From: Gammaproteobacteria bacterium
GTDB lineage: Bacteria > Pseudomonadota > Gammaproteobacteria > SURF-13
DNA length: 25,673 bases
Assembly (NCBI GenBank): GCA_023381235.1
Contig: JAMCTV010000111.1
Location: 1-25,673 of the forward strand
Reading direction: 5' to 3'
Part shown: positions 5,183 to 16,840 of the stretch, in pieces
Position numbering within the stretch: the first letter of the stretch is position 1
Layout: each line of letters opens with the position of its first letter
Made by a program: the position numbers and the translations under genes
Notes under the pieces: model-generated
Databases searched by the model: none
The model's input: the letters and a program-made list of their open reading frames with translations, nothing else
What the model was told of the DNA's origin: nothing

Positions 5183-5196
5183 TTGCGCTAGATCAA
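5183..5196. promoter_or_regulatory. FNR/CRP-family box TTGCG-CTAG-ATCAA with a -10 (TAGGGT, 5220-5225) toward archease-rtcB
   Basis: 8/10 match to TTGAT-N4-ATCAA, an identical 15-mer at 16770, and a 23-nt gap to the -10 as at the other two boxes. Confidence 0.75.
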
Positions 5197-5235
5197 ACAA
5201 ATATTAAGCGCGGCTGTGTTAGGGTTAATTTTGAA

Positions 5236-5643
5236 ATGAGCTACGCCTATTTCGATCACGACGCCGATATCGGCATTACCGGCTACGGCGCTACAGTGGA
5301 GGAAGCCTTTATCGCTGGCGCGCAGGCGATGTTCGCCATTATGGCGAATATCACCTTGGTGCACGATACGCAGCACATCGAGTTCAGTTTCACGGAGTTT
5401 GACACTGAACTGGCGTTCGTTACCTGGCTGAACAACTTGCTCACCGAGGCGCAGAGCCGGGGGTTGGTGCTGACGCGCTTTGAGTTGCACAAGAAGGGCG
5501 CGCAATGGCACGCGCAGGCATGGGGCGAGCCGTGGCGCGAGGATTTGGAGCGCGGCGTGGAGGTCAAGGGCGCGACGCTCACCATGCTCTCGGTCACGCT
5601 CAAGAACGGACTCTGGGAGGCGCGCTGTGTGGTGGATGTTTGA
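5236..5643 (+). CDS. Archease (RtcB activator)
   Basis: N-terminal YFDHDADIG, C-terminal EVKGAT...W.A..VVDV, and position directly upstream of rtcB. Confidence 0.93.
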   Translation: MSYAYFDHDADIGITGYGATVEEAFIAGAQAMFAIMANITLVHDTQHIEFSFTEFDTELAFVTWLNNLLTEAQSRGLVLTRFELHKKGAQWHAQAWGEPWREDLERGVEVKGATLTMLSVTLKNGLWEARCVVDV

Positions 5644-5675
5644 GATGAGTCGCGGAAGTAAAGGAGGGTAGCGCA

Positions 5676-7109
5676 ATGGATATGCGGCGTTTGCAAAAGA
5701 TAGACGATTACCGCTGGAGCATACCACTGGCTGCCGGCGAGCAGCGCGCGCCGGTATGCCTGTACGGCAGCGAGCCGTTGCTGGCCAGCATGGACGACAA
5801 GGTGCTGGAGCAGATCACCAATGTCGCCAAGCTCCCCGGCCTGGTCGGCGCCGCGATGACCATGCCGGACGCGCATTGGGGCTATGGCTTTCCCATCGGC
5901 GGCGTGGCGGCGTTTGACGCGGAGCAGGGCGGCATCATCTCCGCAGGCGGCGTGGGTTTCGATATTTCCTGCGGCATCCGTTGCCTGCGCACTAATCTCG
6001 ATCTGCCCGCGGTCACGCCCAAATTAAAGGACCTGGCCGACGCCTTGTTCCACTCTATCCCGGCGGGCGTGGGCGAAGAAGGGCGGCTCAAGCTCGCCCC
6101 GGCGCAGTTGGATAAGGTGCTGCAAGGCGGCGCGCAATGGGCGGTCAAGCAGGGCTATGGCGTGCCGGAAGACTTGGAGTATGTGGAAGAAAACGGTTGC
6201 GTGGCGGGCGCCGTGCCGGAAAACGTTTCGGATCACGCCAAGAAGCGCCAGCGCGGCGAAATGGGCACGCTGGGGTCGGGCAACCATTATCTGGAGGTGC
6301 AGGTGGTGGAGCGCATTTACGATCAAGCCGCCGCGCAGGCCTTTGGTCTTCGCCAGGGACAGATCGTGGTGTCCATCCATTGCGGCTCGCGCGGCTTGGG
6401 ACATCAGATCGGCACCGAGCATCTGGTCTCGCTGGCCAAGGCCGCCTCGCGCCTGGGGATTTCCCTGCCGGACCGCGAACTCGCCTGCGCGCCGATCAAC
6501 TCGCCTGAAGGGCAAGAGTACATCGGCGCCATGAACGCCGCCATCAATTGCGCGCTTGCCAACCGCCAGATCCTTGCGCACCTCACGCGCGAAGTATTCG
6601 CGCGCGTGCTGCCCGATGCCACGCTGGGAACGCTGTTTGACATATCGCACAACACCTGCAAGGTGGAGAAACATAAGGTAAACGGCAAACAGCGCACACT
6701 CCACGTGCATCGCAAGGGCGCGACGCGCGCCTTCGGCCCGGGGCATCCCGCGATCCCAGAACGCTATCGTGAGACAGGGCAGCCGGTCATCATCGGTGGC
6801 ACGATGGGCACCGGCTCATACGTGCTGGCGGGCACGGCGGAGAGCGAAACCAGGGCCTACTCCTCGGCGAGCCACGGCGCGGGGCGCGCCATGAGCCGCC
6901 ATCAGGCGCTGCGCCATTGGCGCGGACGCGAACTGATTGACGAACTGGCCGAACACGGCATTCTGATCCGCACCCGCTCCATGCGCGGTGCGGCGGAAGA
7001 GGCGCCGGGCGCTTACAAGGACGTGGACCTGGTGGCCGAGGCGACGGAAAAGGCCGGACTTGCCCGGCGCGTCGCCTTCCTGTGCCCCAAGGCGTGTATC
7101 AAGGGCTAA
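5676..7109 (+). CDS. rtcB: RtcB-family RNA 2',3'-cyclic phosphate/5'-OH ligase (long, archaeal-like type)
   Basis: MPDAHWGYGFPIGGV, GFDISCG, GTLGSGNHYLE, HCGSRGLG, SHN, HRKGAT, HGAGR, EEAPGAYK and C-terminal IKG. GGAGG RBS. Confidence 0.97.
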   Translation: MDMRRLQKIDDYRWSIPLAAGEQRAPVCLYGSEPLLASMDDKVLEQITNVAKLPGLVGAAMTMPDAHWGYGFPIGGVAAFDAEQGGIISAGGVGFDISCGIRCLRTNLDLPAVTPKLKDLADALFHSIPAGVGEEGRLKLAPAQLDKVLQGGAQWAVKQGYGVPEDLEYVEENGCVAGAVPENVSDHAKKRQRGEMGTLGSGNHYLEVQVVERIYDQAAAQAFGLRQGQIVVSIHCGSRGLGHQIGTEHLVSLAKAASRLGISLPDRELACAPINSPEGQEYIGAMNAAINCALANRQILAHLTREVFARVLPDATLGTLFDISHNTCKVEKHKVNGKQRTLHVHRKGATRAFGPGHPAIPERYRETGQPVIIGGTMGTGSYVLAGTAESETRAYSSASHGAGRAMSRHQALRHWRGRELIDELAEHGILIRTRSMRGAAEEAPGAYKDVDLVAEATEKAGLARRVAFLCPKACIKG

Positions 7110-7120
7110 GGCATCCGAAG

Positions 7121-15549: not shown

Positions 15550-15705
15550 GGTTATCCTCATTTATTTTCAAGACTTCGCACAGAAGTGCGTGGAATAATC
15601 TTGTCCTGAACAGCCAGGTTTTCGGTAAACCGGTTATGGCATGGCGCAATGGAACCACCATAGGCATTGTAGTGGAGCCATGTATGGATGGCAAATAGGG
15701 CATGG

Positions 15706-16737
15706 CTAGCGCGGAATGATGTCCAGGTATGTAAGCCCCCCCGTTTGGATGGCTTGGAAGCGCAGCGGCAGAAATTGCCGCAGCAGCCACAGCGTGGTTT
15801 GCGCGTGCGAGGTGAAGCTGCGCAGCAACAGGCGCGACGCCCCCTGCGCCAGGGCCAGATAGATCAGCAGTTGATCGGAGGCGTGAATATCCACCGTCGC
15901 GCCGGCGCTGATTTCGTCGCTCAGGGCCTGAGCGGCTTCACCCCCGATACGCTCAGCGGGCACGCCGCGCTCAGCGGTGGAGGCCGCGCCCAGCAGTGTG
16001 TGAAGCGTGCGCGTCCAGAGGACGATGGCGCCGCCCTGTCCTATGGCCTCGTTACGGCCCAGCCGTTGGCAGTCAATGTGCGTATTTTCAAAACTCTGGA
16101 GCTTATGCTGCGCCGATTGCCGCATGCGCTCGGCGATATGTCCGGGCAGATTGGCGGTATGAATAATGCCTTCGATCTCACGCACGGCCCCCAGTGTGTC
16201 CAAACCGAGCGGGAGCAGTTGTTTCACCGGCGGCAGTGACACCTCGATTTCTCCGCCGCCGCGCGGATAGTAGCCGCGGCGCAGCACTTTGACGTCCACG
16301 GACAATCCCATCCTCGCCAGCAGCGGCAGCAGCACATAACGGAAATAATCCAGGGGCGGAGCGGCCTTGACGTCGGTGCCGCCGGTGAGACGCAGGTGTA
16401 CCGGCGCGCCGCAGGCAAAAGCGGCCGGCAACACCGCCTGTAAAACCAGGATCACGCTTCCCGCCGTACCCACGTTGAAGTCGAAATGCCCCCCATGCAG
16501 CCCGCCGGGGCGGAAGGTGAATTCCCGCGCGCCTAATTCCAGGCCGGTGATTTCCGCGCGGCACAAGGCCGCTACCGCGCGCACCGCAGTGAGGTGCTGG
16601 GCGGCGAGCCCGGGCTTGGGACGCCGCGCGCGGATATTACGCAGCGCAATTGCTTTGCCGGTCATGGCGGAGAGCGCCACCGCCGTGCGCACCAATTGCC
16701 CCCCGCCTTCTCCATAAGAGCCGTCAATTTCATGCAT
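15706..16737 (-). CDS. rtcA: RNA 3'-terminal phosphate cyclase
   Basis: DGSYGEGGGQ..RTA, IRARRPKPGL..QH, TAGS..L..Q, GGTDV..APP.DY, RRGYYPRGGG, DQLL and catalytic TSH. Confidence 0.95.
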   Translation of the reverse strand: MHEIDGSYGEGGGQLVRTAVALSAMTGKAIALRNIRARRPKPGLAAQHLTAVRAVAALCRAEITGLELGAREFTFRPGGLHGGHFDFNVGTAGSVILVLQAVLPAAFACGAPVHLRLTGGTDVKAAPPLDYFRYVLLPLLARMGLSVDVKVLRRGYYPRGGGEIEVSLPPVKQLLPLGLDTLGAVREIEGIIHTANLPGHIAERMRQSAQHKLQSFENTHIDCQRLGRNEAIGQGGAIVLWTRTLHTLLGAASTAERGVPAERIGGEAAQALSDEISAGATVDIHASDQLLIYLALAQGASRLLLRSFTSHAQTTLWLLRQFLPLRFQAIQTGGLTYLDIIPR

Positions 16738-16769
16738 AGTGGATTTTAAAAAATAGGCAAATGTAAACC

Positions 16770-16783
16770 TTGCGCTAGATCAA
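16770..16783. promoter_or_regulatory. FNR/CRP-family box TTGCG-CTAG-ATCAA with a -10 (TAGAGT, 16807-16812) toward hpf
   Basis: Identical to 5183-5197 over 15 bp, with a 23-nt gap to the -10; lies between the divergent rtcA and hpf genes. Confidence 0.75.
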
Positions 16784-16840
16784 AGATTGGCGACGTCTTT
16801 TTGCCCTAGAGTGAAGGCGTCAAAAACAAGGAGTGACGTC

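Follow-up and report, generated by a model that had tools for sequence, protein, structure and literature searches.

Are genes for RNA repair, anaerobic deoxynucleotide (dNTP) synthesis, and ribosome hibernation switched on together at low oxygen in an uncultured bacterium of the lineage SURF-13 (Gammaproteobacteria)? The question arises from a stretch of 25,673 nucleotides (the window), which starts at the first base of the 26,281-base contig C111 (JAMCTV010000111.1) in a 168-contig, 1.27-Mb metagenome-assembled genome (MAG) that is 76.75% complete (G000). The initial annotation of the window had described three boxes that resemble the binding site of the regulator FNR and had proposed that they define a local anaerobic regulon. 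We propose that the organism has a single FNR/Anr-type regulator, which binds all three boxes and would act as a class II activator of three plus-strand operons at low oxygen, and we give this reading a probability of roughly 0.8. The regulon would not be local, however: at least nine more boxes (perfect or with one mismatch) lie on other contigs of the assembly, and hence it appears to be genome-wide.

The boxes and their promoter geometry

All three boxes lie where the initial annotation had placed them (starting at 5183, 9012, and 16770 on the plus strand), and Pfam assignments of the neighbors confirm that each sits between divergent genes: hypC and archease, dodecin and a dksA-like gene, and rtcA and hpf-CSD (Table 1). 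Box 2 has the FNR inverted repeat in full (10/10 positions). Boxes 1 and 3 are hybrids with the layout TTGCGC-N2-GATCAA, which match it only in part (8/10) and keep the TTG, the CAA, and one perfect half. As had been noted, these two are identical across 15 bp (the box plus one A) at a distance of 11.6 kb. We rejected a segmental duplication as their origin because the identity stops at 15 bp and the surrounding flanks are unrelated. The claim that each box is followed after exactly 23 nt by a TAnnnT hexamer (TAGGGT, TATCTT, and TAGAGT) was also correct. Given that TAnnnT has a frequency of 0.012 in intergenic DNA, the probability that one offset would be common to the three boxes is about 1e-5, even allowing for seven possible offsets. 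If transcription starts 7 nt past the hexamer, then a gap of 22 nt places the center of the box at -41.5, so gaps of 21-23 nt correspond to class II geometry. The 23-nt gap is thus a proxy that is compatible with a box center at -41.5 to -42.5.

With 7 matches versus 7.7 expected, the loose pattern TTG-N8-CAA shows no enrichment in the window, so the case rests instead on the enrichment of stricter sites, on geometry, on the rarity of the hybrid, and on conservation. A scan of the genome, which the initial annotation had suggested and which we ran as a pattern search, found 9 perfect TTGAT-N4-ATCAA sites in the assembly, versus about 0.25 expected from base composition. Eight of the 9 are intergenic, while intergenic DNA makes up 10% of the assembly (as estimated with a purpose-written gene caller based on codon usage). 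Two near-complete genomes from the same genus (G001 and G003) have 13 perfect sites each, versus 0 for a reversed control pattern. Perfect boxes are therefore over-represented in promoter regions across these genomes. The exact hybrid 14-mer occurs at just two places in the assembly, which are boxes 1 and 3; the looser pattern TTGCG-N4-ATCAA has four further matches, all of them within genes.

To describe the geometry across the genome, we considered 12 boxes (8 perfect, 2 with one mismatch, and the 2 hybrids) in every direction that has a gene within 250 nt (n = 20). A TAnnnT hexamer is present at a gap of 20-23 nt in 15 of these 20 directions, versus about 8% expected per direction. The 23-nt spacing is common to the three boxes of the window, as claimed, but it is not special, as the regulon uses 20-23 nt. 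Five of the 12 boxes have hexamers on both sides, including box 2 (TAAACT at a gap of 22 nt) and box 3 (TAAAAT at a gap of 21 nt). On the hypC side of box 1, the closest -10-like element is 38-40 nt away.

Of the sites in the assembly (at least 12), 3 fall within the window, which makes up 2% of the sequence. Beside the other sites are two HSP20 genes; phosphoenolpyruvate (PEP) synthase with a DUF302 protein; a D-2-hydroxyacid dehydrogenase; a beta-CASP metallo-beta-lactamase RNase followed by YebC; an ABC1 kinase with a DUF1451 protein; an Fe-S subunit similar to sulfhydrogenase beta; a globin-coupled GGDEF-EAL protein, which is downstream of two small uncharacterized genes; and one further uncharacterized gene. 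The gene for the sulfhydrogenase-like subunit (C56:10026-11141; L004:1027-2142, minus strand) has a one-mismatch FNR box upstream, with TATGCT at a gap of 21 nt. This suggests that a hydrogenase may be in one regulon with the hyp maturation genes beside box 1.

Several of the predicted FNR promoters would leave almost no leader. The archease start codon is 10 nt from the -10 hexamer, with no Shine-Dalgarno sequence, and this spacing is retained in another genus of the family (g2). For rtcA the distance is 5 nt, and the placement of its -10 hexamer predicts a leaderless transcript. For the beta-CASP RNase (contig C34, near 812-830), about 10 nt separate the -10 hexamer from an in-frame ATG that is 12 nt inside the called gene. 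These distances suggest leaderless or near-leaderless mRNAs in the putative regulon.

Table 1. Boxes, putative promoter elements, and flanking genes, in window coordinates. Gaps are distances from box to hexamer.
Feature	Position	Strand	Remarks
Box 1, hybrid FNR-type, TTGCGCTAGATCAA	5183-5196	+	archease-side half perfect; hypC-side half is TTGCG
Putative -10 hexamer TAGGGT for archease-rtcB-prs-PRTase	5220-5225	+	23 nt past box 1; 10 nt before archease ATG (5236)
-10-like element TATAGAAT for hypCABD operon	5137-5144	-	38-40 nt from box 1; class I-like distance, with box center near -58 to -60
Box 2, perfect FNR box, TTGATCTACATCAA	9012-9025	+	10/10 positions of TTGAT-N4-ATCAA
Putative -10 hexamer TATCTT for dksA-like-nrdD-nrdG	9049-9054	+	23 nt past box 2
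Putative -10 hexamer TAAACT for dodecin	8984-8989	-	22 nt from box 2, opposite strand
Box 3, hybrid, same 14-mer as box 1 (TTGCGCTAGATCAA)	16770-16783	+	
Putative -10 hexamer TAGAGT for hpf-CSD	16807-16812	+	23 nt past box 3
Putative -10 hexamer TAAAAT for rtcA	16743-16748	-	21 nt from box 3; 5 nt before rtcA ATG (16737)
Predicted operon: archease (5236-5643), rtcB (5676-7109), prs-like (7121-7972), phosphoribosyltransferase (PRTase; 7977-8720)	5236-8720	+	Pfam, NCBIfam
hypC (4862-5107), hypA, hypB, hypD	2596-5107	-	Pfam; divergent from archease
Dodecin	8744-8947	-	Pfam Dodecin; likely ATG at 8947, preceded by AAGGAG
dksA/TraR-like zinc-finger gene (9085-9480), nrdD (9522-11609), nrdG (11612-12301)	9085-12301	+	Pfam
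rtcA, RNA 3'-phosphate cyclase	15706-16737	-	Pfam RTC, RTC_insert
hpf-CSD, fusion of hibernation-promoting-factor and cold-shock domains	16841-17389	+	Pfam Ribosomal_S30AE, CSD; ATG at 16841, preceded by AAGGAG

We call the product of 9085-9480 DksA-like because the DksA models score below their NCBIfam cut-offs. Downstream of hypD, in the usual place of hypE, is a gene of the RNase Z subfamily (1542-2567, minus strand; 473 bits on NCBIfam NF002558); hypE is not in the window. Contigs from metagenomes link position 12371 back to 7979, and sequencing depth peaks at 7979-8030 and 12318-12371 (up to about 448), as would be expected if a repeat of about 54 nt, present in multiple copies, flanked the block from the PRTase to nrdG.

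Conservation in the family and beyond

Boxes precede the orthologous genes in congeners, in other genera of the family, and at archease loci of more distant bacteria. The congeners are G001 (98% complete), G003 (95% complete), and G002, and the other genera are g2, g5, and g7. G001 and G003 are syntenic with the window throughout this region, with DNA that is about 85% identical. Within each of the three intergenic regions, these two genomes keep box and hexamers as invariant islands, with a variable spacer in between. Box 1 and TAGGGT are conserved in both, as is the element on the hypC side (TATAGAAT), whose geometry is not conserved in genus g2. Box 2 is also identical in both, with TATCTT conserved, and the dodecin-side hexamer is TAAACT or TACACT at an unchanged position. 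Box 3 is conserved in G003 and G002 and has one spacer change in G001 (TTGCGCCAGATCAA); on its hpf side, the hexamer is TAAAGT, TACAGT, or TAGAAT in G003, G001, and G002, at the same offset as in the window, and on its rtcA side the TAAAAT stretch is invariant in G001 and G003. In G002, where rtcA is not adjacent upstream, hpf is still preceded by box 3, the 23-nt gap, and TAGAAT. The initial annotation had named the loss of the boxes in relatives as an argument against a regulon; in the congeners, both the boxes and the -10 hexamers are retained.

Directly after TATCTTA, G001 has an inserted repeat of about 100 bp that is similar to a miniature inverted-repeat transposable element (MITE); the insertion leaves the dksA-like box and -10 hexamer intact. 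A MITE-like repeat with the core GCTCTGAATAAGT has 25 copies in G000 (for example at C56:11226 and C34:741), mostly after targets like TTAAGG or TAAGG. We rejected the idea that the repeat targets FNR promoters, as only 2 of the 25 copies are near a box.

The gene order archease-rtcB-prs-PRTase is also found in genera g2, g5, and g7. In g2, where archease is about 65% identical, the gene is preceded by TTGCGCTAGATCAA, TTGCGCCAGATCAA, or TTGCACTATATCAA, and then, after 22-23 nt, by TAGCCT, TAGGCT, or TAATCT (G013, G010, and G019). In g5, archease is preceded by a perfect box (TTGATCTTAATCAA) and, after 22 nt, TATCTT. In g7, the archease box is degenerate. The weak TTGC half is retained in two genera. 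Before the dksA-like gene, the box is perfect in g2 (G013) and g5 and has one mismatch in g7; by genome, it is perfect or has one mismatch in G007, G013, and G009.

The hpf gene differs most. It has no box in g7, and in g5 it is preceded by a sigma54-like element with GG-N10-GC spacing and no box. This element, CTGGACA-N4-GGTTGCAT, is conserved about 60-100 nt upstream of hpf-CSD at three loci (L015, L016, and L018). In g2, the region upstream of hpf is also without a box, and a perfect box lies shortly downstream of a short hpf (G013 and G004). At these two loci (L022 and L023), the box is TTGATCTAGATCAA or TTGATCCAGATCAA, about 60 nt past the short hpf, where the CSD part of the fused form would be. 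These differences suggest regulatory turnover between genera of one family.

We also compared contigs from four metagenomes to positions 5050-17000. No listed difference or indel falls strictly inside the intervals from box to hexamer, and one is at the edge of such an interval, but this output is fragmentary, lists only a minority of the differences, and is not counted as evidence here. In a sediment metagenome (X6), an 11-nt insertion at 16806 that starts with TAGAGT lies at the hpf -10 hexamer, and TAGAGT stays at the 23-nt offset.

Beyond the family, we gathered 80 RtcB loci from other species and scanned 71 archease upstream regions (160 nt each). The nearest RtcB proteins (77-80% identity) are from MAGs of Burkholderiales, Gallionellaceae, Sulfurimicrobium, and Nitrosomonadaceae. 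In almost all of the loci, archease is directly upstream of rtcB, and hpf-CSD, PRTase, or PGA_cap genes are often close by. An FNR-type box with at most one mismatch precedes archease in 9 of the 71 loci, as compared to 0.27 on average, and never more than 3, in 1000 shuffles. The boxed loci are from Burkholderiales MAGs, Rhodanobacteraceae, Vulcaniibacterium, Mizugakiibacter, Chromatiales, and others, and at two more loci the box is a hybrid in which one half is CGCAA or TTGCG. Predicted FNR-family control of archease-rtcB is thus recurrent and not peculiar to this genome.

The regulator and alternative explanations

Each of the three congeners encodes exactly one strong HTH_Crp_2 protein. 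The protein from G003 scores 252 bits on the NCBIfam model for Fnr (NF008365; cut-off 228). It has an N-terminal CSSCSLHELC (C-X2-C-X5-C), a central cysteine (STVCEVPF), and a helix with LETVSRL. In all three congeners, the protein exceeds the Fnr cut-off and has the cysteines and ETVSR. In E. coli FNR, these cysteines ligate the cluster and the ETVSR residues read TTGAT. Across 19 genomes of the family (which are not independent samples), nrdD is present in 8 of the 10 with an FNR orthologue and in none of the 9 without, and archease is present in 8 of the 10 and in 2 of the 9, both of which are incomplete genomes. In G004 (genus g2; reported to be 100% complete), the FNR orthologue, archease, and nrdD were not found with the queries that we used, and there is only a short HPF, without the CSD. 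In this genome the regulator and the island seem to have been lost together.

From the boxes, their geometry, and the congeners' regulator, we infer the following mechanism. As oxygen falls, FNR would acquire its oxygen-labile [4Fe-4S] cluster, dimerize, and bind the boxes. Centered about 41-42 bp upstream of the starts, the dimer would give class II activation of archease-rtcB-prs-PRTase, dksA-like-nrdDG, and hpf-CSD. The divergent rtcA and dodecin promoters would be activated from the same boxes, as might hypCABD from its class I-like distance. The hybrid boxes most likely bind this FNR more weakly, to judge by their mismatched half, which would set a higher threshold; the RNA repair and hibernation genes would then fire only at higher levels of active FNR. 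For the three plus-strand operons, this is the arrangement that the initial annotation had proposed, and the comparative evidence (conserved footprints, the congeners' Fnr, and the genome-wide geometry) supports it.

Several points weigh against this reading. It is not certain that FNR binds the hybrid boxes, since one of their half-sites departs from the consensus at positions 4 and 5, which include the A of the TGA-N6-TCA core. From the start predicted for archease, the leader would span just 3-5 nt and lack a Shine-Dalgarno sequence, an unusual arrangement. The initial annotation had remarked that no regulator gene is in the window, and searches of the whole assembly with HTH_Crp_2 or with the congeners' FNR found no CRP/FNR-family gene either; at 76.75% completeness this does not imply absence, and the presence of FNR in this organism is deduced from its congeners. 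In g5 a sigma54-like promoter takes the place of box 3, in g7 box 1 is degenerate, and the relatives are few and phylogenetically non-independent. Finally, the public sequencing runs that contain part of this DNA (about 20 of the 24 listed) are all DNA metagenomes, and none is an RNA run.

The strongest alternative accepts box 2 as an FNR site and assigns the hybrid boxes to another regulator, either an NO- or redox-sensing paralogue of the Dnr/NnrR type that prefers TTGCG halves or an unrelated protein. In that case, another signal would control RNA repair and hibernation. NnrR-type boxes use TTGCG halves, and both hybrid boxes retain the CGC of their weak half in the three congeners and in genus g2, which looks like selection rather than decay. 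Also, the exact hybrid is confined to these two promoters, and many archease boxes in other taxa have a GTCAA or TTGAC half. However, TTG and CAA are intact in the hybrid, one of its halves is perfect, and its distance to the -10 hexamer is that of the canonical sites; also, the archease box in g5 is a perfect FNR box. A second regulator is further disfavored because the congeners have only one member of the family: the other cNMP-domain proteins of G001 and G003 are not matched by HTH_Crp_2. We consider it unlikely that the hybrid boxes serve another regulator.

Somewhat less likely again is that FNR activates in one direction only and that rtcA, dodecin, and hyp are unaffected, or are repressed by occupancy of their promoters. 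One site cannot be assumed to serve two promoters; the -10-like element of hypC is 38-40 nt off, with a geometry that is not conserved in g2; and the retention of box 3 in G002 does not depend on an adjacent rtcA. On the other hand, a conserved TAnnnT lies on the minus side of boxes 2 and 3 at a gap of 21-22 nt, five boxes across the genome have hexamers on both sides, and in E. coli a single CRP site can activate divergent promoters. Of the divergent genes that the initial annotation suggested might share the boxes, dodecin, with a conserved TAnACT at a gap of 22 nt, and rtcA, with a conserved TAAAAT at 21 nt, thus remain good candidates, and hypC (38-40 nt) is a weaker one.

That the boxes are chance palindromes without a regulatory function is very improbable: TTG-N8-CAA does occur at chance frequency in the window and relatives at 85% identity would keep many 14-mers regardless, but chance would not explain the enrichment and intergenic bias genome-wide, the common geometry, the conservation across genera at about 65% protein identity, or the recurrence in unrelated taxa.

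Relation to known regulons

FNR-dependent activation of nrdDG is established in E. coli, and the class II promoters of E. coli FNR, with TTGAT-N4-ATCAA about 22 nt upstream of the -10 hexamer and a center near -41.5, are the closest match to the promoters described here. The regulators also correspond, with four cysteine cluster ligands and an E--SR recognition helix. Unlike in E. coli, the predicted targets add archease-rtcB, rtcA, and hpf-CSD; many sites are apparently bidirectional; and there are two conserved TTGCG hybrids. The FNR class II switch itself is textbook, and what is gained is the content of the regulon rather than a mechanism. What is new is modest: RNA-repair and hibernation genes are among the predicted targets, the hybrid box is conserved, and the layout appears to be bidirectional.

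The known control of bacterial RtcB, RtcA, and archease is by RtcR and sigma54 in enterobacteria or by DosR in mycobacteria. A literature search for FNR or Anr linked to rtcB found no paper. As in the enterobacterial rtcBA system, the window encodes the RNA repair enzymes RtcB and RtcA. In contrast to that system, rtcB and rtcA belong to separate transcription units, with 8.6 kb between them (7109 to 15706) and an FNR-type box next to each; archease is present; and RtcR (PF06956) was not found in five genomes of the family (G000, G001, G003, G007, and G009), with E. coli as a positive control. Inspection by eye near box 3, without a systematic scan, did not find a sigma54 GG-N10-GC element before the rtc genes. 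The only GG...GC pair has a 12-nt spacing (GG-N12-GC), and we rejected it as a sigma54 promoter on that account. With RtcR not found in these five genomes, we do not count the rtc genes of the window as members of the RtcR/sigma54 system.

The closest known arrangement is the lxa locus of the betaproteobacterium Burkholderia cenocepacia, which is activated by low oxygen and has 17 Anr/Fnr-like TGA-N6-TCA motifs at intergenic points (Sass et al. 2013, PMC3721108). It encodes an oxygen-independent ribonucleotide reductase (RNR), pentose and nucleotide genes, and an alpha-crystallin, and the authors drew a parallel to DosR (PMC3721108). The three boxes of the window likewise form a cluster of intergenic Anr/Fnr-like motifs that spans 11.6 kb and would serve up to six transcription units. 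The two differ in that lxa has a class II RNR, universal stress proteins, and polyhydroxyalkanoate (PHA) genes, with RtcB unmentioned (0 occurrences in PMC3721108), while the window has nrdDG, the Rtc RNA-repair genes, and HPF-CSD. The host genomes are also of different sizes (about 1.7 Mb versus 8 Mb).

The gene content also overlaps with the DosR regulon of Mycobacterium tuberculosis. That regulon includes Rv2631 (RtcB), Rv0079 (the HPF-type protein RafH), Rv0570 (RNR), Rv0571c (phosphoribosyltransferase), Rv0574c, HSP20, and a hydrogenase locus (PMC5309233), which have counterparts in this window or regulon. We read Rv0574c as a PGA_cap-type protein, while PMC5309233 calls it pyroglutamate synthase-like. 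DosR is a two-component response regulator that acts at Dev boxes, not an FNR, and the similarity is one of functional convergence or shared modules, not of membership.

The oxygen-averse or oxygen-sensitive targets (the glycyl-radical enzyme NrdD, the hydrogenase maturation proteins, and RtcB) and the growth-arrest targets (HPF-CSD, the HSP20s, and nucleotide salvage) fit one theme. For RtcB, the active-site cysteine of RTCB is described as sensitive to oxidation (PMC12263435). With its anaerobic dNTP supply, RNA repair, ribosome hibernation, small heat shock proteins, PEP synthase, lactate-type dehydrogenase, and hydrogenase, the predicted regulon reads as a hypoxic-persistence program. A bolder extension, which we put forward tentatively and rather doubt, is that RtcB/archease ligation, RtcA end-healing, and HPF-CSD form an anoxia-specific program in many Proteobacteria that is wired to FNR instead of RtcR/sigma54. 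In this family the program would have a higher activation threshold, set by the conserved box with its weak half-site, and would be partly leaderless, and the oxidation-sensitive RtcB would be made only without oxygen.

FNR-type promoters before RNA-repair genes recur in several proteobacterial orders, which predicts that these genes and those for ribosome hibernation are induced by the loss of oxygen, alongside anaerobic dNTP synthesis. For this small-genome, uncultured Burkholderiales lineage of mine tailings, soil, and sediment, the boxes point to a compact hypoxic-persistence regulon that would be convergent in content with that of DosR.

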